Below are positions 8,678-61,574 of a stretch of 64,000 bases of DNA, piece by piece. Position 1 is the stretch's first letter. Each line of letters starts with the position of its first letter. Below the pieces are notes generated by a model. It was given only the letters and a program-made list of their open reading frames with translations, had not been told where the DNA came from and did not search any database. The translations under genes were made by a program, and so were the position numbers. The DNA comes from Squalus acanthias. Lineage: Eukaryota. The stretch covers positions 155,124,001-155,188,000 of the forward strand of contig CM059425.1 of assembly GCA_030390025.1 (NCBI GenBank), read 5' to 3'.

Positions 8678-9312
8678 TTAGAGTCCAGGATCTGACCTCA
8701 GTTTTCCTAGGGCTCTTTGGTGCCATACTCAATCAGATGCTGCCTTGATGTCATGGGCAGCTGTCTTCTGACATTCAGCTTCTTATCTTCATGTCTGGAT
8801 CAAGACTATGATGAGATCTGGAGTGAAATGATTTTAGCAGAACCCAAACTGAGCATTGGTGAGCAGGTTATGGGTGAGTAAGAACTGTTTGATGGCACTA
8901 TTAATAACTCCTTCCATCACTGTGTTGATGAATGCAAGGAGGCCAACAACATGGTACAGGAAACTCTCGTTTAAACGGCACCTAAATATCCGGAATTCTC
9001 TATTAACCAGCAAAAATCTTACACCGAAAACTCCTCTCAAATAACCGGCAATGTTGCCGAGTCCGAGTCTCCCGCGAACGCCGAGTTAGTCAGTGGGGGT
9101 AGTTCTCCAAAGTGCCACTACTCGGCTTCCTGGCGCTGTCGGAAGTCCGAACACTGCAATAACAGGAGTCTGATTCTCCCGCGCTGCCGGGAGTCTCTTC
9201 TGATCGTCCATTTTACTGTGTGCCTCCCACGCTGCTGGTAGTCTCTTCCTAGCCACCATTGTTCTGTGTGTCTCTCCATCTTTATCGGGAATTATCTCCC
9301 CCATCTTGCATT

Positions 9313-11512
9313 ATGGAATTCCCAAAAGCTGGTCCAAGCAAAAGGAAGAGAGTGGTCTTAACTTTGAAACAGAAAATCGAGATATGCCAACGACTAGAAA
9401 GGGGAGAGAAGCGTATCAACATTATGAATGAATTCAAAATCGGTTCGTCAACAATCTACGACATCAAATCGCAGAAGGATAAGCTGCTCAAGTTTTATTC
9501 AAGCTCGGAGACATCTAAGAGTGTAGAGAAACGGCATACACTTCGTAAGCCTAAGCTTGAAGAGCTGGATACCGTGCTTTATGAATGGTTTTCTCTTAAG
9601 CGTTCAGAGGGTGTTCCAATTTCCGGACCCATGCTAATCGAGAAAGCGGAGGATTTCTACGAAAGGATGGAGCTCACTGACAAGTGTGCTTTCTCCGAGG
9701 GATGGCTAACGTGCTTCAAGTTACGGCACGGGATACGACGACTCGATATTTCCGGGGAGAAGAAATCAGCTGATCACGACGCCGCAGAAGAATACTGCGA
9801 TTACTTCAATCGGATTGTGCAGCAACATGATTTGTCGCCAGCACAGATATATAATGCCGATGAAACTGGCTTGTTTTGGAGGTTTTTGCCAGAATCAACG
9901 CTTGCTGGGGCTAGTGAGGCTAATGCTTCAGGTTACAAGAAAAATAAACATCGTGTAACCGTGCTAACATGTGCGAACGCTGCTGGATCACACCGGGTTA
10001 AACTTCTTGTTATTGGGAAGTATAAAAATCCCCGTGCATTTAAAAATGTGAGGCACTTGCCTGTTGAGTACAAAGCTCAAAAAAATGCTTGGATGGATAA
10101 GGAAATAGAAACATAGAAACATAGAATCTAGGAGCAGGAGTAGGCCATTCGGCCCGTCGAGCCTGCTCCACCATTCAATACGATCATGGCTGATCATCCA
10201 AATCCAGTACCCTGTCCCTGCTTTAATCCCCGCAGTACACATATCCCACTACCCCCGTAACCCCACGTATTTAATTCCCCCTAACATATCCCATCCTATC
10301 CCCATAACCCTACATATTTAATCCCCCCTAACACTAAGGGTCAATTTATCATAGCCAAATCAACCTAACCCGCACATTTTTGGACTGTGGGAGGAAACCG
10401 GAGCACCCGGAGGAAACCCACGCAGACACGGGGAGAATGTGCAAACTCCACACAGACAGTCACCCGAGGTCAGATTCGAACCCGGGTCTCTGGCGCTGTG
10501 AGGCACCAGTGCTAACCACTATGCCACCGTGTTGCCCATCTTCTCCGATTGGTTCCATCATATTTTTGTTCCATCTGTGAGGGAACATTTCCGTAAAATA
10601 GGGAAACCTGAAGATAGCAAATGCATTTTATTGCTTGATAATTGTAGAGCCCATCCGCATGAATCCGAGTTGGTTTCGGGAAATATTTTCACCATTTATT
10701 TGCCACCAAATGTAACTTCTCTCATCCAACCCATGGACCAGGGCGTTATCCAAAATCTGAAGTGTCATTACACGAAAGACTTTCTACGTAAACTGATAAG
10801 CCAAGATGACAATATTCACGCATTTCAGAAGGAATACAATATTAAAGATGCCATCTATAATGTTGCATGTTCCTGGAACTTTGTGAAAGGTCACACTCTG
10901 AGGCAAGCCTGGCACAAATTGTGGCCTTCTGTAATGTTTGCTGAAGGTTCTTCTTCAGAGGAGGAATTTCATGGGTTCAATGTTCGTCCCAAGAAGAGTA
11001 CAATAATGGAAATGGCTGGCATGGTGAAAAATGCAGGCTCAGCAAACCCTCTACGTCACCTCAGTGAAAGTGATATCGAGCAGTGGGTTGATGCAGATAG
11101 AGAAGTTGGTGTTGTGCATATGCTAAGTGATGATGAAATAATTGAGAATGTTTTGAATCCAAAGAAAGAAAAGGAAAGTGAGATGGAAAGTGAAGAAGAT
11201 GATATTTCTGAAGAGAACAAGATTTCTTGGGCTAAAGCTGCAGAAGGATTTTCTTCAATCCTCAAATTTGCTGAAAGGCAGACTTGCTACTCTGCCCAAG
11301 AAGTTATGCAACTCCATATTCTGCATTCCACGTTTCTACAGAAAAGGCAAGAGTCCACTAAGCAAACCAACATCCGCAACATGTTTAAGAAAGCTTCCAA
11401 AAGAGTCAAAGCAGCGGAAGTGCCTGAAGAATCTGTGGAATCTGTGGAAATGCATGATCCTGCTGACCCAGCTGGCACGGATATTCCTGATGAACCAGCT
11501 GACTCAGAATAA
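9313..11512 (+). pseudogene. Tigger/pogo transposase (CENP-B-type HTH + DD32D), interrupted by a SINE
   Basis: [65 protein letters not shown]. Joining 9313-10104 to 10538-11512 gives a stop-free 588-aa frame (..WMDKE|IFSDWF..). Confidence 0.93.
10107..10537 (-). mobile_element. tRNA-derived V-SINE (HE1-like) with CR1-type tail
   Basis: Minus strand: tRNA-like head ggtggcatagtggttagc...ggttcgaatc, V-domain gtgtggagtttgcacattctccccgtgtctgcgtgggtttcc, (tttctatg)n tail; near-identical to 56210-56648. Confidence 0.93.
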
Positions 11513-46159: not shown

Positions 46160-48206
46160 ATCTAACCTGGCAATGGCACTGTAGAGTGTCACAGTCCCAT
46201 GCTCCTTGTAGGTAATGACATTTTAGAGGTAAGGTGTTTGTTGGTGTCCAGGGTGTCCATGAAAGTGAAGGGAGATCGGCTGTAATGTTACCTTTTCTTC
46301 CCTGGTCTTGCGGTACTGCTCTATAGTTCTAGGCGTTGGTACTCAATGCCAGTGTCACCTCCCTATGGAGACCTAAAAATATCACACTCCTCTGTTCAAT
46401 CTGCTTGGAGGGTTTGGAGGTTGGTCTGATTGAATTTGTGAGCTCTTCTTTGCTCTACTCTTATTGACTCTTTGGTTGCCTGTGTCAGATCCTCTGGTAA
46501 AAGACTTTCTTTAAAAATGGGACAAAAGCACACATTGAGTCATCCAGTGCAATTATCTGTGATCCAAACACTTTCCGACTGAACTGCTGCTCCCTAGCCT
46601 ATTGCTGCTATCTTCAGCTAAACTTGTTTTCTTTCCAAAGACTGTAATCTGATATTTAAGCACGCCCAGCACATTACTCCTGTATTACTTGGGATTTCCA
46701 TTAAAGAACTAGCAACTTAAATGAGCAGTGCCAGAAAATTTTGAAAGGATTCAGCTCTGCAGAGCATCAGTGCGTTTAACTCCAGACTCATTGACGCAAA
46801 TCCAGCCCAACTCATCACGTGAAATTTCGGGGCCCAAGTATTAACAATATCGGGGGAAATAATTTTCTGCAAACATCTGATAATGATTATAATGTTGTGG
46901 GTCATAATTAGGAGGTCTCCAAAAAAAGCAGGACTAAACTGTAGAGCCTTAAAAAGTGTGAGTGGTGGCTCACGAACACTCACTACTACTATTCTACACT
47001 GGCAGCACAAGGCCTCATACGATCTGAGCTATGGGGTTTAAAGCAGAGACTTTCAGTCTTCTAATCTACTTTGGAGGCTCAGGCCTGGAATTGTTTCTCA
47101 GGATGACACAAATTTAAGTACGATTACCTGGAATATAGCAGAGATAAAATAAATCACCATTTTTTTTTCTTTCTAATTCACCCCTTTTCCCCATGTTTTC
47201 CTGAAGGCACTGACTTTTGCTGGATTATGGTTCCATGCATGCTGGCAGTTCAGCAGTACCTCATCTAAGTGACCATACCTCCAATTGATAGTTAGAGTCC
47301 GCAGGCTACTCAACCTTGGGCATCACAGACAAATGTGATCCTGTCCTCTCCGAACTTGGAGGATGTGGAATCAATATGGGTTGAGCTGCAGAACACCAAA
47401 GGGCAGAAAACGTTAGTGGGGGTTGTGTACAGACCTCCAAACAGTAGTAGTGAGGTGGGGGAGGGTATGAAACAGGAAATCAGAGGTGCATGCAAAAAAG
47501 GCGCAGCAGTTATCATGGGTGACTTTAATATGCATATAGATTGGGCTACTCAAACTGGAAGCAATACGGTGGAGGAGGATTTCCTGGAGTGTTTAAGGGA
47601 TGGTTTCCTAAACCAATATGTTGAGGAACCAACTGGAGGGGAGGCCATCCTGGACTGGGTGTTGTGTAATGAGGAAGGACTAATCAGCAATCTTGTGGTG
47701 CGAGGCCCCTTGGGGAAGAGTGACCATAGTATGGTGGAGTTCTACATTAGGATGGAGAAGGAAACAGTTAATTCAGAGACCATGGTCCAGAACTTAAATA
47801 AGGGCAACTTTGAGGGTATGAGGCGTGAATTGGCGAGGTTAGATTGGCAAGCGATATTTAAGGGGTTATCAGTGGAAGGGCAATGGCAGACATTTAGAGA
47901 TCGCATGGATGAACTACAGCAATTGTACATCCCTGTCTGGCGTAAAAATAAAAAAGGGAAGGTGGCTAAACCATGGCTAACAAGGGAAATCAGGGATAGT
48001 ATTAAAAGCAAGGAAGTGGCATACAAATTGGCCAGAAGTAGCAGCAAACCCGGGGACTGGGAGAACTTTAAAACTCAGCAGAGGAGGACGAAGGGTTTGA
48101 TTAGGGCAGGGAAAATAAAATATGAAAGGAAGCTTGCGGAGAACATTAAAACGGACTGCAAAAGCTTCTATAAATATGTAAAAAGAAAGAGGTTAGTAAA
48201 AACAAA

Positions 48207-48400
48207 TGTCGTAAGAATGAGCCTTACGCGTGGTGAACTTAAAGTAAGCTTTAATCAACTAAAAAGGTGCTACATACAAAAGAGGTCTTACTCTATGCCT
48301 CTCCAGGATCCAACTGATCAGCCCAGTATTTATCCTGGACTAATCACAGGAAGTGATGTAATAAAGTTCAAGTCACAGGAAGCTGTATTGTGTTACCACA
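48207..48400 (-). repeat. 3' LTR
   Basis: Direct repeat of 52495-52688 with 2 substitutions; adjacent to PPT ggggggggggagaa on the minus strand. Confidence 0.97.
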
Positions 48401-48465
48401 TTCTCCCCCCCCCCAAAAGATTAGGAGGCCGGGATGAAGTTCGAGTCACAGGAAGCTGTATTGTG

Positions 48466-51400
48466 TTACCACATTCTCCCTCCATTTCGTAGCCGCTGGA
48501 CGAGGGAGAGCCGCACCCGTTTGGGTTCTCGTAGCGGTAGAGGGCCCCTAGCCCGTTTACCCGCCGCAGGCCGTGGACCAGAGTCCGAGTGATCCAGCCC
48601 GCTCTGTGAGGGGTCAGGACGATCCTGACTGTGTACTGGTGCCCGAACGGGTGTCGGGCAGGGCTGTGGCAGATCCGTTTCCGAGCGTATGGTACGGGGT
48701 GGATCGTGGCTGCGCGTGCGAGCCCCGACGGGCTCATAGTCAGTCTGCCCCAGGTCGGCACGCTGGAGTGAGGTACCAGCCGGCGTCAGATCCAGATTGT
48801 GATGAGAGGCACCTGGCGAGCCCAGAGATGTGCCTGGTACAATATCATCCCCTGGTGTCCCTCTATGTTTCGGCGGGCAGGGAGCCAGATCCCGCAATGA
48901 CACGGTAGATTCCCGACCGTCAGGATACCGAATATAGGCGTAGGTAGGGTTGACGTCAGTGAGCTCAACCTCATCTACCAGGGGGTCATTCTTAGACGCC
49001 CGAACATCTCTTCGGAGTAGCACTGGTCCCGGTGCAGTCAGCCACGACGGGAGAGATATCCCATAGGATGAGCGACGCTGAAATCGGAAGAACCGTTCAT
49101 GAGGCGTCGTATTTGTGGCAGTCGAAAGGAGGGACCGTGTGGAGTGTAATGCGTCTGGAAGTACTGCTTCCCATTGCTGGTTGGGTAGGCCCCGAGATCT
49201 CAAAGCCAGACGTACCGCATTCCAGATGATAGCGTTAAAACGCTCGACTTGCCCATTCCCGACCGGATGATAAGGCGTCGTTCTGCTGGCAGCAATACCC
49301 CGTTCCGAGAGATAGGCCTTGAGTTCTCCTGACATAAAAGAAGGGCCCCGATCCGAATGAACATAGGATGCCATGCCACAGAAAGCAAATACCTGCTCAA
49401 GGCAGCTGATAACCGTGGTCGTCAGCATATTGGGGCAGGGAAAGGCAAACGGAAAACGGGAATACTCATCGACCATGGTCAATAGATAAGTGTTGCGAGT
49501 TGAAGAGGGCAACGGCCCCTTAAAATCGATGCTAAGCCGTTGCATTGGCTGGGTCACATGTATGAGTATACCACCCGAGGGGCGGAAAAACTGAGGTTTC
49601 AATTCCGCACAGACTCTGCAGTCCGAGCACATCTTCTTTACATCCCCGGTAGAGAATGGGAGATTTCGGGACCGCACGAAGTGTAGCATGCGAGTAACGC
49701 CCGGATGACACAACCCATCATGGATGTCTACGAGCGTAGAGGGTGCCATGGCGGAGCAGAATGCTCGTGTGAGGGTATCCGGAGCCACATTCTCCTTGCC
49801 AGGTCGATAGTGGATGGTGTAACCAAAAGAGGCCAATTCCAGCCGCCAAAGCTGGATTTTATTATTTTTAATTTTGGTCCGTTTTCGATTATCGAGCATG
49901 AAGGCGACCGATCACTGGTCCGTGATTAAGGTAAAGTGCTGGCGAGCTAGGAGATGACTCCACTTCCGTACTGCCTCTATGATGGCTGTAGCTTCTTTCT
50001 CGACTGGAGGATAATGTAGCTCAGCCCCTTGAAAAGTCCTGGACAAAAATGCCACCGGACGACCTTCCTGATTCAGAGTGGCCGAGATCGCCACCTCCGA
50101 GGCATCACACTCAACAACAAAAGGAAGACTCTCATCGATGGAGTGAAGAGCCGCTTTCTCCAACTGTTTTTTCAGGAGGTTAAAGGCTGCAACAGCCGCT
50201 GTGTCTAGTGGGAATGTGCTGGCCTTCAGTAGAGGTTGGATTCGGTCCGAGAAGTTAAGAATCCATTTAGCATAGTATGCAAACAGGCCGAGGGCCCGGC
50301 GCAAGGAGGCCGGATTCTTAGGTGGCGGGAGTTCTTGGAGTGGGCGAAGCCTTTCAGGGTCAGGTTTAATGATGTCATTGCCCACACAGTAGCCAAGGAT
50401 GTTGATGGTTGGTTGTGACTCAATGGATTTAGCCGCATTTAATGTCAAATTACGGTGCTGGAGTGCATCCCAAAATCGTTGGAGATTGGCGTCATGTTCC
50501 CGCTGATTGCGACCTGCGACAGTAATATTGTCCAGATAAGGAAACGTATCCTTTAAGTCTTCCTGTTTGACCAGGTCATCCATTGCTCGCTGGAAGACAG
50601 CCATTCCATTAGTGACCCCAAAGGGGAGGCGACGAAATTGATACAGCCGTCCATTGGCTTCAAAGGCCGTATACTGCTTGTCTGAGACCTTCAAGGGTAC
50701 CTGATGATAGGCACTTTTCAGATCATATGTTGAGAACACCGTGTACTCAGCCAGTTTATTAACCATATCATCGATGCGCGGCAATGGGTATGCGTCCAAG
50801 TCCGTATATTGATTGATGGTCTGTGAATAGTCAATGCACAGCCGTTTCTTGTGAGGTTGTAGAGGGTTCTTAACAATAACGACCTGGGCGCGCCATGGCG
50901 ACGAACAAGGCTCGATGATATCCTCTGCTAAAAGCCGAGAAATCTCAGCCGCAATAAAAGACTGGTCTTCCTGACTGAAACGTCGTGACTTTGTTATAAT
51001 CGGTTTGCATCGAGGAGGGATACTGGTAAACAGTGAGGGTTCATCCAGTGAAGCTGCTGACAATGCACAGAACGGTAATCGAGGTCGTATATTAGAAATA
51101 GTGAGTTCAGGTTTGGATCCGCCGAACTCAATGGTGAGCTTCTTATGCTGCTTTTGAAAATCTAGCCCTAAGATAAGATCACTACATAAGTCCTTGAGCA
51201 CTGAAAGCCGGGTGGAGGGATACCTGTGACCATTAAGTATTATTTCAACCATACAAAAGCCAGAAATTCTGGTATTAAGTGATGACTGAGCCATCGCAAT
51301 TGCCTGGTCCGATGGGAAAACATGTAGCTTTAACTCTGCAACAATCTGTTCCCTAATGAAACTATCAGTGCTACCTGAGTCAATTAAGGCATCTAAAGTA

Positions 51401-52416
51401 TGTCCATTAATTGATGCTTTTGTAGCTGCATGGAATAGGTTCTGAGGACAAGCAGCTGTAATTGGTGTCGTTGCACAAAGAGTGGCTGAAACTCTAGGTG
51501 TGTTTCTTCGAGAGAAAACCCGAGAGGAAGCATGATAGATTTTAGCCGGAACATCTTGATAGGCCCTTACCGGGGCAGTTCGGTAGGACTTAGCTTGATA
51601 AGCCCTCGTAGAGGCTCTTGATAGGCAAACCTTTGCAAAATGACCCTTTTTGTTGCAATGACTGCAAAACGCATTGCGAGCAGGGCAGAATTTCCGAGGG
51701 TGAAACTCATCACCACAAAAGAAGCATTTCTTAGATTGCCAAGAGGCTGCCACAGTGGGGTCATCATCCTCTTCATCAGTGAAGTCATCAGATTGATCGT
51801 CAGGGATAAAGTCCTCCCTAATAGAGTTCACCTGTGGCCTCTTAAATTGCCTGACTGTAGTTAAGGCAGCAGACCGAGGTCTGGGCACTGTATAAAGGTC
51901 TGCATTTCTTTTTGCCAGATCTAGAGAGCAAGCCATGTCATAAGCTCTCTGAAGCTCAAGTGTCTTACTTTCCAGTAGACGCTGGCGTATAAATGGGGAG
52001 GCAAGCCCGCAGATGAAAGCATCACGGATCATTTCTTCACGGTACAGCTCAGCTGAGGCCGCCTGAAAGTTACAGTCCATACTAAGTCTGCGAAGCTCTT
52101 GGAGGAATTTATCAATGGATTCCTCCGGCCCTTGTTGGGCTGTAGCTAGTAGATGTCTGGCATAGACCTCATTCGGTGTCTTAGTATATAGTCTTTTAAG
52201 CATCCGAATTGCCTCCTCGTAACTGCCCCATTCCTCCACATACTGAAATACATTCGGGGTGACACAGTTGATGAGTATCCGCAATTTTGAGTCATCATCA
52301 GCCTTGCAATATTCGAGAAAATTGTCAAACGTGCGATACCAGTGTTTCCACACCTTACCGGCTGCTGGGGTGTTTGGGTCCAAGTCAAGACGCGATGGTT
52401 TAAGGATGTTTTCCAT
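48466..52416 (-). pseudogene. Gag-Pol polyprotein, single frame with one internal TGA at 49912-49914
   Basis: Two CCHC knuckles (CFFCGDEFHPRKFC, CSHCNKKGHFAKVC), protease LIDSGS, RT LPFG and YLDN, RNase H CDASE/EKEA/ITDQ*SVAFM, integrase HHCC and IDF-SDRG-VERFN. Confidence 0.95.
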
Positions 52417-52482
52417 GATGGGTGATTCCCTGGATCCTTAGTTCCGAGTTCGTCCAAAAAGTTTGAGTGCGAAGTTTTTCAA

Positions 52483-52493
52483 AGTTGATTAAA
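52483..52493 (-). promoter_or_regulatory. Putative self-priming primer-binding site
   Basis: tttaatcaact, 1 nt after the 5' LTR; exact complement of LTR positions 52538-52548; no TGG-initiated tRNA PBS. Confidence 0.8.
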
Positions 52494-52494
52494 T

Positions 52495-52688
52495 TGTCGT
52501 AAGAATGAGCCTTACGCGTGGTGAACTTAAAGTAAGCTTTAATCAACTAAAAAGGTGCTACATACAAAAGAGGTCTTACTCTATGCCTCTCCAGGATCCA
52601 ACTGATCAGCCCAGTATTTATCCTAGACTAATCACAGGAAGTTATGTAATAAAGTTCAAGTCACAGGAAGCTGTATTGTGTTACCACA
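52495..52688 (-). repeat. 5' LTR
   Basis: Upstream of the gag ATG (52416) on the minus strand; TG...CA ends. Confidence 0.97.
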
Positions 52689-55149
52689 ACAAACGTAGGT
52701 CCCCTGCAGTCAGAAACAGGGGAAGTCATAATGGGGAACAAAGAAATGGCAGATCAATTGAACAAGTACTTTGGTTCGGTGTTTACTGTGGAGGACACAA
52801 ACAACCTTCCGGAAATAAAAGAGATCAAAGGATCTGGTAAGAGGGAGGAGCTGAGGGAAATCCTTATCAGTCGGGAAAAGGTGTTGGGGAAATTGATGGG
52901 ACTGAAGGCTGATAAATCCCCAGGGCCTGATGGTCTGCATCCCAGAGTACTTAAGGAGGTGGCCTTGGAAATAGTGGATGCATTGACGATCATTTTCCAA
53001 CATTCCTTAGACTCTGGATCAGTTCCGAAGGAGTGGAGGGTGGCTAATGTAACCCCTCTTTTTAAAAAAAGGGAGGGAGAAAGCAGGGAAGCAGCCTGAC
53101 ATCGGTGGTGGGTAAAATGATGGAATCAATTATTAAAGATGTCATAACAGACCATTTGGAAAGTGGCGACATGATAGGTCCAAGTCAGCATGGATTTGTG
53201 ATAGGGAAATCATGCTTGACAAATCTTCTGGAATTTTTTGAGGATGTTTCCAATAGGGTGGACGGGGGGGGGAACCAGTAGATGTGGTGTATTTGGACTT
53301 TCAGAAGGCCTTCGACAAGGTCCCACACAAGAGATTGGTGTGCAAAGTTAAAGCACATGGGATTGGGGGTAATGTGTTGACGTGGATTGAGAACTGGTTG
53401 GCACACAGGAAACAAAGAGTAGGAGTAAATGGGTACTTTTCAGAATGGCAGGCAGTGACCAGCGGGGTACCGCAGGGTTCGGTGCTGGGGCCCCAGCTGT
53501 TTACATTATATATTAATGATTTGGACGAAGGGATTAATTGTAATATCTCCAAATTTGCGGATGACACTAAATTGGGAGGCAGTGTGAACAATGAGGAGGA
53601 TGCTAGGAGGCTACAGAGTGACTTGGACAGGTTGGGTGAATGGGCAAATGTATGGCAGATGAAGTACAATGTGGATAAATGTGAGGTTATCCACTTTGGT
53701 GGTAAAAATAGGGAGGCAGACTATTACCTGAATGGTGGCAGATTAGGGAAAGGGGAGGTGCAACAAGACCTGGGCGTCATGGTACATCAGTCATTGAAGG
53801 TGGAAAGGCAAGTGCAGCAGGCAGTCAAGAAAGCAAATGGCATGATGGCCTTCATAGCAAGGGGATTTGAGTACAGGAGTAGGGAGGTGATGCTACAGTT
53901 GTACAGGGCCTTGGTGAGGCCACACCTGGAGTATTGTGTGCAGTTTTGGTCTCCTAACTTGAGGAAGGACATTCTTGCTATTGAGGGAGTGCAACGAAGG
54001 TTCATAGATTGATTCCTGGGATGGCCAGACTGACATATCAAGAAAGACTGGATCAACTGAACTTGTATCCTCTGGAGTTCAGAAGAATGAGGGGGGATCT
54101 TATAGAGACGTTTAAAATCCTGACTGGTTTAGACAAATTAGATGCGGGCAGAATGTTTCCAATGTTAGGGAAAACTAAAACCAGGGGTCACAGTCTAAGG
54201 ATAAAGGGGAAGCCATTTAAGACTGAGATGAGGAGGAACTTCTTCACCCAGAGAGTGGTGAATCTGTGGGATTCTCTACCACAGAAGGTTGTTGAGGCCA
54301 GTTCGCTAAATATATTCAAAAGGGAGTTAGATATAATACTCACAACTATGGGGATCAAGGGGTATGGCGAGAAAGCAGGAATGGGGTACTGAGGTAGCAT
54401 GTTCAGCCATGAACGCATTGAATGGCGGTGCAGGCTCGAAGGACCGAATGGTCTACTCCTGCACCTATTTTCTATGTTTCTATGTTTCTAACATCCATGC
54501 ATGCACACTTTCCACCAGTGTGATCACTCGATAGTAATCAGGAATGGGAATTCTGGTTGATTTTGGTCCTTCCTGGCCTCTGGATACTGTGGCGATTTGT
54601 AGCACCAAGACCACTGATCTGGCTGCTGATCCAACGCGATACAGTCCTGATCTGTTTGGCTCAGTACCAAGAACCCAGAACAGTTATACAGTCCACAGTC
54701 CAGTGGCTCTGGCAAGTTATCCAGATGTTTCTCTCAAGAGTGACATGGAAGACAAAATCAACTGCCAAACCAGGGAGAGTCCTGCTTTCTATATAGATTT
54801 CTGAATTATTGTATCGCTATAACTGTGAATGGAATAAATAAGCGCTGATGTTATAGTGATGGGTTCTGTGACATTATAATGGTAGTGGCATCTCCATTTT
54901 GATGAAAGTATCATTACTTCAATCTCGAGTTCAGCAGCTCACCACTGTTGTCAAAGCCTTCCTGGCAAACTGTTCGCATCCATCATTCATTAATGAGTAA
55001 CATTTTCCCTGTTGTTTCCCCTGTTGCTTGGTGATAGCTTTGGCAGTTTTCTGTGTTTTACAAATCTTCCACATGCCTAACCTATTGTTGCTTGCAAGGA
55101 ACACCAACAAAACTGTGACTTGGATATAAAAAATGTATGTTGAAAAATA

Positions 55150-55890: not shown

Positions 55891-56108
55891 TGTGGCCTGG
55901 AATTTCCTGGAATGGAGCGTTTGGCCCTGATCACCATAATTTTGAGCCTTGTGCTCCCTGATCCTCCAGTAACAAATTTACGGCAAGAGAACCAATTCCA
56001 ATATGTGAATTATTAATTAGATTAGCGAGTCAGAAGTGACGCAGCTAATGTCCGATACACATTCAAGGGGCTGGGGCTGGGGCCAGGGCCGGACATAGAA
56101 TGGAACAG

Positions 56109-56672
56109 CTGGAAAAACTCAGCAGGCCAGGCAACATCCGTGGAGAGAGAAACGGATGTTGCCTGGCCTGCTGAGTTTTTCCAGCGTTTTCTGTTGTTAT
56201 TTCGGATTTGGCAACACGGTGGCATAGTGGTTAGCACTGGTGCCTCACAGCGCCAGGGACCCGGGTTCGAATCTGACCTCGGGTGACTGTCTGTGTGGAG
56301 TTTGCACATTCTCCCCGTGTCTGCGTGGGTTTCCTCCGGGTGCTCCGGTTTCCTCCCACAGTCCAAAAATGTGCGGGTTAGGTTGATTTGGCTATGATAA
56401 ATTGACCCTTAGTGTTAGGGGGGGATTAAATATGTGGGGTTATGAGGATAGGATGGGATATGTTAGGGGGAATTAAATACGTGGGGTTACGGGGGTAGGG
56501 TGGGATATGTGTACTGTGGGGATTAAAGCAGGGACAGGGTACTGGATTTGGATGATCAGCCATGATCGTATTGAATGGTGGAGCAGGCTCGACGGGCCGA
56601 ATTGCCTACTCCTGCTCCTAGATTCTATGTTTCTATGTTTCTATGTTTCCAGCATCCGCAGTATTTTGCTAT
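56109..56672 (+). mobile_element. Short fold-back Penelope-like insertion, itself interrupted by a SINE
   Basis: 15-bp TSD catagaatggaacag (56094-108, 56673-87); 33-bp perfect inverted repeat 56109-141 / 56152-184; 3' end matches the family at 30866. Confidence 0.85.
56210..56648 (+). mobile_element. tRNA-derived V-SINE (HE1-like)
   Basis: Near-identical to 10107-10537. Confidence 0.93.
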
Positions 56673-59424: not shown

Positions 59425-60282
59425 AAAATATCTACTGCTAAAGACTCTTAAGTGTTAGCAGAACAGAAAATGACTGGTTTTCCCACATCACCTGAAGAGA
59501 TATCTAAACACTGAAGTATTATACACGGAAATAGAACTGAACTTTGTGCGTGCAGCATGAATGATAATGTCTGGAGGACAACTGTCTCTCTCAGAACTAG
59601 GCCGTCTTTCCAGACATCTACGTTGACTTAGACAAGGTTTCTTAGGCTAGAAATAGGGATATTGAACCTAATCCACAGAAATGCATAGCAATCGTTAATT
59701 TCAGTGACGGTTTTAACTTTAGGTAGTAACAGTAAGCAGTAAGTAATATTTTAACAGACCCAAAATATTTAATGCATGGCGAATTGTTAGTTCAAGAGGA
59801 AGTATTGCCATCAGTACCCCTTTTAAAATTCAGTTGTGAAAAACCATTAATATCATGGTTTATCTGTATCATTTGTAATTTTTTTTTAATAGTTGCTTCT
59901 AACTGTATTATCAGAGGAACTATCTTGGGATAGTTACTGAAGCCAATAGTGTCAGGAAGCCCAGTTAACAACAATAGAAATATTGTGGCCAACAATTTTT
60001 TTTTTTAAAAAGGAAAAGCATGTTTTTCACCAATGTGAACAAACCATTAGCAAAACGAAAATGTGTGACTTTAAAATGCATTCAATATATAAATCTAAAC
60101 AAGAAGAATAGTTCCTTGGGCATGGTGCCACTGCATTACGATTGTCCGTGAAACTCTATCCCCGCATGAATTACCTCTTTAAGATAAGAGGAGGAAAGGG
60201 AACAATGAAAAAAGGTGTTTTATCAGTTAAGAGGTAACTGTGTGTAATTACTGACTGTCTATTTACTGCCTTAATGATCCCA

Positions 60283-60465
60283 AAAATGAGAAGTCGCACA
60301 ACACCAGGTTATAGTCCAACAGATTTATTTAATTTTACAAGCTTTCGAAGCAGTTCGCTCCTTCGTCAGGTAAGTTAGCAAATTAAATAAATCTGTTGGA
60401 CTATAACCTGGTGTTGTGCGACTTCTCATTTTTGTCCACCCCAGTCCAACGCCGGCATCTCCACA
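60283..60465 (+). mobile_element. Short fold-back Penelope-like insertion with hammerhead in the loop
   Basis: TSD ttaatgatccca (60271-82, 60466-77); 54-bp perfect inverted repeat 60282-335 / 60380-433. Confidence 0.88.
60335..60373 (-). ncRNA. Minimal type I hammerhead ribozyme motif, core intact
   Basis: ttac-CTGACGA-a-ggagc gaact gcttc-GAAA-gctt-gtaa: stem I, stem II, palindromic aagctt stem III, CUU site. Confidence 0.8.
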
Positions 60466-60576
60466 TTAATGATCCCAGACAGACTAATCCATGGTTGATT
60501 ATTAAACCTGTGGTGCTTCAGTTTCAACTCCGCATGTTAATCCAGCTCAATTAGTTAATGACAATTCTTCATAATA

Positions 60577-61574
60577 CCATTTTGGTAAGAAGAACGAGGA
60601 GAAGCAATGTAAACTAAAGGGTACAATTCTAAAGGGGGTGCATGATCAGAGAGACCTGGGGGTATATGTGCACAAATCGTTGAAGGTGGCAGGGCAGGTT
60701 GAGAAAGCAGTTAAAAAAGCATACAGGATCCTGGGCTTCATAAATAGAATTGAGAGGTCGCACAACACCAGGTTATAGTCCAACAGTTTTATTTGAAATC
60801 ACAAGCTTTCGGAGCTATCGATTGCCCCTTCCTCAGGAAGGGGCAATCGATAGCTCCGAAAGCTTGTGATTTCAAATAAAACTGTTGGACTATAACCTGG
60901 TGTTGTGCGACCTCTCAATTTTGTCCACCCCAGTCCAACACCGGCATCTCCGCATCACATTCATAAATAGAGGCATAGAGTACAAAAGCAAGGAAGTTAT
61001 GATGAACCTTTATAAAACACTGGTTCAGCCTCAACTGAAGTATTGTGTCCAATTCTGGGCACCGCACTTTAGGAAGGATGTGAAGGCCTTAGAGAGGGTG
61101 CAGAAAAGATTTACAAGAATGGTTCCAGAGATGAGTGACTTCAGTTACGTGGATAGACTGGAGAAGCTGGGGTTGTTCTCCATGGAGCAGAGAAGGTTGA
61201 GAGGAGATTTGATCGAGGTGTTCAAAATCATGATGGGTTTAGACAGAATAGATAGAGAGAAACTGTTCCCATTGGTGGAAGGGTCGAGAACCAGAGGACA
61301 CAGATTTAAGGTGATTGGCAAAAGAACCAAAGGCAACATTCGGGAAAACTTTTCTACGCAGTGAGTGGTTAGGATCTGGAATGCACTGCCTGAAAGGGTG
61401 GTGGAGGCAGATTCAATCATGGCTTTCAAAAGGGAATTGGATAAGTATCTGAAGGAGAAAATTTGCAGGGCTACGGGGAAAGGGCGGGGGAGTGGGACTA
61501 GCTGAAGTGCTCTTGCAGAGAGCCGACACAGGCTGAATGGCCTACGTCTGTGCTGTAACCATTCTATGATTCTA
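60577..61574 (+). mobile_element. CR1 LINE 3' part interrupted by a palindromic insertion
   Basis: FINRGIEYKS, RRLRGDLIE, RTRGH; attctatgattcta tail. Confidence 0.92.
60749..60959 (+). mobile_element. Short fold-back Penelope-like insertion (173-bp palindrome + 3' end)
   Basis: TSD ttcataaataga (60737-48, 60960-71); perfect palindrome 60748-60920 centred on 60834; same family as 60283. Confidence 0.9.

Follow-up and report, generated by a model that had tools for sequence, protein, structure and literature searches.

How does a Gypsy retrotransposon start reverse transcription when its primer-binding site (PBS) matches its own long terminal repeat (LTR) instead of a tRNA? The question is raised by an element in the window, as we call the whole 64,000-nt stretch of Squalus acanthias DNA that was analysed. 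A mature tRNA 3' end requires TGG in the PBS, and the site in this element starts with TTT, in agreement with the original prediction, made from the letters of the sequence, that a TGG-type PBS does not follow the 5' LTR. Fission yeast Tf1 primes from the first 11 nt of its own mRNA, released by RNase H, and the same prediction held that the present element also primes itself. Tf1 self-priming serves as the precedent in the accessible parts of two papers (PMC7175516, PMC11042837).

From covariation among relatives and from aberrant genomic copies, self-priming of this element appears well supported. We consider it likely, with a probability of about 0.8, that an RNA piece comprising LTR nt 141-151 is used as the primer in place of a tRNA, and that the element works like Tf1 self-priming in some form is very probable indeed.

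Sequence sets and analyses

Scans of metagenome and genome contigs yielded 92 loci, of which 51 were dropped (short upstream DNA or another lineage) and 5 were without a Gag start; the remaining 36 relatives, in which the Gag start and the DNA upstream of it were both present, could be assessed. For the chance test, the LTR was shuffled 200,000 times and an exact 11-nt complement of the site was sought at offsets 0-3. Trees of the reverse transcriptase and RNase H (RT-RH) segment were built from 64 rows (mixture model, quick tree) and 37 rows (LG+G4), and the integrase (IN) tree from 40 rows; none of the rows was a named reference such as Tf1 or sushi, and the chromovirus outgroups included algal and plant elements. 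Comparators that we take to be Mag-like were labelled by known motifs and a TGG-type PBS, without a named reference sequence, and those presumed to be Gmr1-like by domain order and known motifs.

Architecture of the element

The element is 4,482 bp long, lies on the minus strand at 52688-48207 of the window and has the features of a Ty3/Gypsy LTR retrotransposon: TG...CA LTRs, a target site duplication (TSD), a polypurine tract (PPT) and the gag-PR-RT-RH-IN order (Table 1). Ty3 is its best solved RT relative. The two CCHC knuckles and the lack of a chromodomain that had been read from the sequence at the outset were both borne out in this copy. An in-frame stop at 49914-49912 breaks gag-pol, and the long frame terminates inside the internal duplicate at 48483-48437. 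This duplicate is shared with L233 and L234 and was the landing site in L228 (see below); about 40 nt are apparently missing at the same place in L200 (a sister-subfamily copy), in L238 and in the L244 tandem copies. The insertion target was a plus-strand LINE, now split with its endonuclease to the left and its RT to the right of the element.

Table 1. Coordinates of the features of the element, numbered from the first letter of the window
Feature	Position	Strand	Remarks
5-bp TSD, left copy	52689-52693	(-)	
5' LTR	52688-52495	(-)	194 nt, TG...CA; 2 differences vs 3' LTR
LTR arm (LTR nt 141-151, agttgattaaa)	52538-52548	(-)	Sequence, covariation, reverse-complement copies in L226, L228, L231
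Predicted RNA cut site (LTR nt 151/152)	52537-52538	(-)	Fixed duplex end in 21 families; short-LTR deletion junction (four elements) spans the site
Small hairpin directly 3' of the arm	52525-52537	(-)	5 bp in this copy
Second hairpin in U5 (cgtaag/cttacg)	52498-52516	(-)	Family-specific; present in the minimum-energy fold
One-base spacer (A), LTR end to PBS	52494	(-)	CA + one base before the site in 20/21 families
PBS (tttaatcaact)	52483-52493	(-)	Pairs with the LTR arm; not of the tRNA 3'-end type
Single gag-pol frame	48466-52416	(-)	Gag, protease, RT, RNase H, integrase in Gypsy order
Two CCHC knuckles (CX2CX4HX4C) of Gag	51726-51625	(-)	
Protease	51420-51157	(-)	
RT	50850-50389	(-)	YLDN motif at 50538-50527
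Integrase	49737-49264	(-)	
Internal duplicate of purine tract + LTR nt 1-37	48437-48483	(-)	73 nt upstream of the true PPT
Polypurine tract	48401-48414	(-)	
3' LTR	48207-48400	(-)	194 nt
5-bp TSD, right copy	48202-48206	(-)	

The RT catalytic motif is YLDN and not YxDD. Among 120 homologues the last residue is N in 87 and D in 28, with 5 unmatched, and a literature search on YxDN-type RT motifs found nothing relevant. Because the family is young (see below), the YLDN motif appears compatible with activity.

Elsewhere in the window, a Pogo/Tigger-like DDE transposase (CENP-B_N, HTH_Tnp_Tc5, DDE_1) occupies two frames at 9253-11512. Perfect inverted repeats lie among short repeated units at 60281-60955 and 56108-56185, with 86-nt arms 1 nt apart, 55-nt arms 44 nt apart and 34-nt arms 10 nt apart.

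Pairing between LTR and PBS in this copy

The 11 nt of the PBS are the exact complement of LTR nt 141-151 (52548-52538), one nucleotide past the LTR, and the flanking pairs mismatch at both ends; the position and the extent given in the original prediction were right. The arm ends at its 3' side in ATTAAA, a poly(A)-signal-like hexamer, and a 44-nt loop separates the arm of the 5' LTR from the PBS. An exact 11-nt complement arose in 120 of the 200,000 shuffled LTRs. The 66-nt piece 52548-52483 folds with z = -3.64, one of 200 shuffles being equally good, and longer folding windows were unremarkable (z = -1.0 and -0.3). With 5' starts between LTR nt 1 and nt 136, pairing probabilities were 0.84-1.0 at 10 of the 11 pairs of the helix; the distal pair stood at 0.70 when the RNA start was set at LTR nt 141, and the LTR-proximal A-U pair at 0.43 for every start tried. 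The predicted second stem in the loop is present as well. An Rfam search gave no match.

Two further candidates were rejected. A 5-bp U/A extension past a 3-nt bulge had a pairing probability below 0.1, and a 3' splice site at the AG of the arm would, from the sole donor-like site, give a 33-nt intron with a junction that mismatches the PBS.

Conservation and covariation among relatives

Homologues at 43-62% identity carried names from crustaceans, a sea anemone, a tunicate, a sea cucumber, a fluke and a snail. No named reference element was found among the 240 homologues listed, the Atlas returned no informative clade name, and no relative was found in viral contigs. Five clade members (L111, L112, L116, L119 and L122) come from contigs deposited as bacterial MAGs, where animal DNA most likely entered the bins.

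The duplex is kept in 32 of the 36 assessable relatives (30 intact or with 1-2 mismatches, and two, L059 and L061, decayed) and absent in L087, L089, L102 and L106, two of which retain a PBS-like site beside a damaged LTR. A TGG site was seen in none of the 36. A blind scan of 528 random windows of the same loci, used as a control, found exact stems of at least 11 bp in 11. In L119, the most basal member, the duplex is 15 bp long and made of different letters, and the near-identical L040 and L048 differ by matched changes in arm and site.

Covariation between PBS and LTR, which had been proposed as a check on self-priming, was scored on one copy per family in 21 families chosen as having the stem and anchored at the LTR end. 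In this set, pairs 1-13 were Watson-Crick in 20-21 families and pairs 14-16 in 16, 12 and 10, with later pairs at chance. Over pairs 4-14, 220 of 231 were Watson-Crick, against 134 +/- 7 when partners were swapped (maximum 173 in 20,000). A MAFFT alignment of 16 of the 21 sequences contained double-sided changes at 13 of 16 pairs, and none of 500 shuffles matched it on any measure of covariation. Sliding the register lowered the paired fraction from 92% to 28-47%, and RNAalifold recovered the helix unaided. Judged by these comparisons, the pairing is a selected feature of the whole clade.

Across families the duplex keeps its LTR-side end in place and differs in extent at the far end, which gives it a primer-like polarity. 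Its length in relatives is usually 13-16 bp, with the 11 bp found here at the short end of the range, so the fixed 11-nt geometry of Tf1 is not the rule of the clade; the normal primer of relatives would be 13-16 nt long. The arm ends in ATTAAA or AATAAA in exact register in 11 of the 21 families. An RCCT...AGGY-like hairpin follows the arm in many relatives, with a weak excess over shuffles (mean stem 4.3 vs 3.7) that is suggestive of a conserved feature. The sequence of the U5 hairpin is not conserved across families.

Copies of the family in the genome

The 30-nt junction between LTR end and PBS occurs in 1,230 exact copies in the 3.7-Gb genome, and the scored copies, 40 of 1,315 candidates, were 99-100% identical; the family is young and abundant. 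LTR pairs were 4,219-4,238 nt apart in 47 of 48 among those listed, ordinary copies being full length. Arm and PBS were identical in all 30 retrieved copies, which were the best-scoring ones and hence say little about variation. Three point variants at PBS nt 7 had no compensating change in the LTR (0 of 3), as is expected for decay, and lend no support to the pairing.

A sister subfamily (804 LTR hits) has an extra A at the far end of the arm and an extra base after the site, resulting in a 12-bp duplex. Substitution variants at PBS nt 12-13 had a second change within 3 nt in three of five cases (p about 0.001 under an assumed background of 4.5%), a clustering that resembles changes as at an error-prone strand-transfer junction. 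The 12-bp version and the clustered changes directly after PBS nt 11 indirectly favour a transcription start at 52548. On this sequence evidence we lean, by a little, towards a normal primer of 11 nt that starts at 52548 in this family; a start farther away is compatible with self-priming. No TATA-like motif was found at a fixed distance from the arm, and the single raw-read RNA run compared gave 0 mapped reads.

Several arrangements were recorded alongside these counts. L244 (G000:C1:566000-575800) consists of at least three tandem copies with single LTRs between them; integrase-independent tandems have been described for Tf1. The sister-subfamily copy L200 (G000:C1:64217208-64220229) runs straight into an apparent LTR end and PBS of another clade family, which looks like a nested insertion. 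Runs labelled with five different organisms contained 49-80% of the sampled words of the element (window 48200-52700), which may reflect close relatives or horizontal transfer.

Aberrant copies as a possible record of priming

The 3' end of Tf1 cDNA often retains a DNA copy of the primer, according to the available part of PMC11042837. If an LTR RNA primer is likewise kept and copied, rare products should carry LTR sequence in reverse complement beyond the PBS. Six genomic junctions had a base other than T after PBS nt 11, and they comprised three inverted-LTR junctions, two substitutions and one deletion. The inverted continuation runs from LTR nt 151 back to nt 96 in L226, nt 32 in L228 and nt 1 in L231, a penetration of 56, 121 and 151 nt.

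L226 and L228 also have LTRs of 60 nt, in which nt 1-17 are fused to nt 152-194. A search for this junction gave seven hits that represent four elements, all with a perfect 5-bp TSD, the same deletion in both LTRs and a junction that spans the predicted cut site. Since the deletion is in both LTRs and the TSDs are perfect, these elements passed through reverse transcription. All four are shorter than full length, with distinct internal deletions that start at the PBS or no more than about 50 nt from it, and two of them carry an inverted LTR copy. The short-LTR junction sits in a 5-nt repeat (LTR 17-21 and 151-155), and the LTR has other repeats of 5-10 nt. No other junction exactly at LTR nt 152 was found, and the sister subfamily had no such aberrant copy in 3 hits. 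One of the four, L228/L236 (G000:C4:24610940-24611231), is a TRIM-like mini-element of 292 bp with two 60-nt LTRs and a perfect TSD, and looks like the product of one aberrant cycle.

The inverted and short-LTR copies fit an LTR-derived RNA primer that is cut at nt 151/152, kept and copied, as in Tf1. The cut in the RNA would set the end of the strong-stop DNA at nt 152. Where the arm of the 3' LTR had acted as the primer, the cut would take away the landing repeat, the strong-stop DNA would then land on the 4-5-nt match at nt 17-21, and plus-strand synthesis would afterwards copy the long attached primer.

A different account, which concerns the aberrant copies only, is that they are accidents of DNA, plus-strand or replicating DNA folding back at the 11-bp inverted repeat and the short LTR resulting from a slip between the 5-nt repeats. 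It has some force: the inverted arm of L231 ends exactly at LTR nt 1, as plus-strand strong-stop fold-back would, the nt 151/152 deletion has 5-nt microhomology, and the deletions counted were those at this one of the LTR repeats. However, the inverted sequence of L226/L232 (nt 96-151) and of L228/L236 (nt 32-151) is missing from the LTRs of those same elements, so that one-step DNA fold-back cannot explain these copies, although it can explain L231, and a second rearrangement lies near the PBS in all four short-LTR elements. We regard accidents as an unlikely origin, to be taken seriously nonetheless. With a kept and copied RNA primer as the preferred reading, the aberrant copies offer a way to read from genomes alone where the RNA was cut and what became of the primer, and such genomic evidence is new here. 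They also supply exact coordinates for RNA-end mapping.

Placement of the lineage

Neither a chromodomain nor a Tf2-type SH3 domain was found in any of 40 clade members or in this copy. The lineage forms one branch (support 99-100) in the RT-RH and IN trees, and the chromodomain-bearing clade (96-100) excludes it in both, in trees without Tf1 or sushi rows. Its sister in the RT-RH trees is the Mag-like group (97 with LG+G4, 58 with the mixture model), and in the IN tree a group that includes microsporidian elements (94). The Mag-like and Gmr1-like comparators show TGG sites. Chromoviruses in the same genome were sought through PF16297 or PF24626 and none were found.

By the features tested, the lineage would thus lie outside the chromovirus group, and domains as well as the topology of these trees support the initial view that the element is not a chromovirus of the Tf1/sushi kind. 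The further suggestion, that self-priming arose here independently of Tf1/sushi, is likely on the same sequence data but falls short of a strict result, as the AU test did not reject the lineage as sister to chromoviruses (p = 0.265 and 0.433).

Larger LTR elements of about 9-10 kb (L206-L212, L215 and L225) have a YVDD RT and a very long branch, and about 900 nt separate their matched RT-RNase H and integrase segments.

Proposed mechanism and alternatives

In the mechanism that we propose, folding of the transcript brings the LTR arm onto the PBS over the 44-nt loop, and the RNA would be cut just after ...AUUAAA (52538/52537), probably by the RNase H of the element, by analogy with Tf1. Synthesis from the new 3'-OH would cross the one-base spacer and run through U5 as far as nt 152, and the strong-stop DNA would transfer to a short repeat that lies 3' of the poly(A) signal within the 3' LTR. 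The primer would stay on, and plus-strand synthesis would copy it and rewrite the PBS in each cycle, so that arm and PBS would stay matched while families diverge. We infer the enzyme, the cleavage at LTR nt 151/152, the start site and the poly(A) site.

Self-priming might instead proceed normally from the arm of the 3' LTR, the RNA being circularised and the arm cut there, which would leave a long primer. The inverted copies do reach 56, 121 and 151 nt into U3, farther than an 11-nt 5' primer extends, and two of them co-occur with failed strand transfer, as expected if a cut in the 3' arm removes the landing repeat. Yet copies of this type are rare (3 vs 1,230 normal junctions in this subfamily alone), a long uncut primer gives plus-strand copying no stop signal whereas the normal match stops sharply at 11 or 12 nt, and the 5' arm is just 44 nt from the PBS with a pairing probability near 1. 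As the normal route the 3' arm is improbable; given the rarity, the sharp end of the match and the nearby 5' arm, it is better read as an occasional one.

It is more doubtful still that the duplex merely hides the poly(A) signal of the 5' LTR, with some host RNA or another site providing the primer. A hexamer ends the arm in the 11 families noted above, and the partner strand lies beside the 5' copy only, both of which suit occlusion. The duplex is kept, however, in the 10 of 21 families without a canonical hexamer in that register; occlusion needs no fixed one-base spacer, no other primer site is present, and inverted copies that start exactly at the PBS would be left unexplained. As a second role of a priming duplex, hiding the 5' poly(A) signal may well occur.

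Finally, priming by a tRNA fragment or other host small RNA, with an incidental LTR match, has a precedent in the half-tRNA priming of some Copia lineages (PMC6317226, in its accessible part), and the comparison of the site with host tRNAs covered few sequences (31 calls with 7 distinct sequences, all Lys or Cys; longest PBS complement 5 nt) and is a weak test. From one family to the next, however, the letters of the PBS shift in step with the LTR of that family, and a conserved host RNA could not keep up with such changes; we dismiss this explanation as highly improbable.

A broader picture can be drawn, which we put forward tentatively and hold to be rather less probable than not. It is of a pan-animal Gypsy lineage with a YxDN RT that invented tRNA-free priming independently of Tf1/sushi, in which one duplex primes, masks the poly(A) signal of the 5' LTR and renews the PBS in each cycle, and in which either LTR copy may be cut, use of the 3' copy circularising the RNA and spawning short-LTR mini-elements.

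Self-priming itself is known from Tf1, and its occurrence in this clade is a variant of a known mechanism. So far it has been shown experimentally only in fission-yeast Tf1, and a literature search, thin on subscription journals, turned up no account of self-priming for any non-chromoviral Gypsy clade of animals. The present clade is non-chromoviral and large, extending over crustaceans, molluscs, flatworms, cnidarians, echinoderms, tunicates and this genome. If the reading is true, retrotransposons have repeatedly evolved an escape from tRNA priming and from silencing by tRNA fragments, and annotation tools that demand a tRNA PBS would mis-score the whole clade.

Comparison with known systems

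Mag elements have two CCHC knuckles and short LTRs, and the present lineage resembles them in both respects, in contrast to the TGG tRNA-type sites of the Mag-like comparators L218 and L220. With Saci-2/lennie of flatworms it shares a single gag-pol ORF, a similar length (about 4.7-5.2 kb in those elements) and a non-chromoviral character (PMC12471100, available text), whereas those elements, by description only, have a 4-bp TSD and a tRNA-type PBS in the accessible portions of PMC12471100 and PMC4558846; here the TSD is 5 bp long and the site self-complementary. Cigr-1/MolGy are likewise non-chromoviral animal Gypsy elements, and the present lineage occurs in a tunicate and a snail; the clade may already bear the name Cigr-1 or that of a MolGy clade (PMC6238403, as far as its accessible part goes).

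Self-priming is tied to Tf1/sushi, Tcn1 and the Copia TAR lineage in the available section of PMC6317226. As with the TAR (Houba/Osr-1) Copia elements and Tcn1, self-priming is here predicted from sequence, and TAR is, by the same partial source, a precedent outside Tf1/sushi (PMC6317226); the present lineage differs from TAR, which belongs to the Copia superfamily, and from Tcn1, which is chromoviral, both in plant hosts.

The closest likeness is to Tf1/Tf2 of Schizosaccharomyces pombe, Tj1 of S. japonicus and Tf1/sushi, in which the PBS also complements the LTR RNA of the element, and this family has an 11-bp duplex. The primer would probably be retained and copied into the cDNA end, as it is for Tf1 in the accessible parts of PMC7175516, PMC4600332 and PMC11042837, and single-LTR tandem arrays are a further likeness to Tf1. 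Unlike Tf1/sushi, the clade is without a chromodomain or Tf2-type SH3 and has two CCHC knuckles and mostly a YxDN RT, and its duplex is usually 13-16 bp long and ends in a poly(A)-signal-like hexamer.
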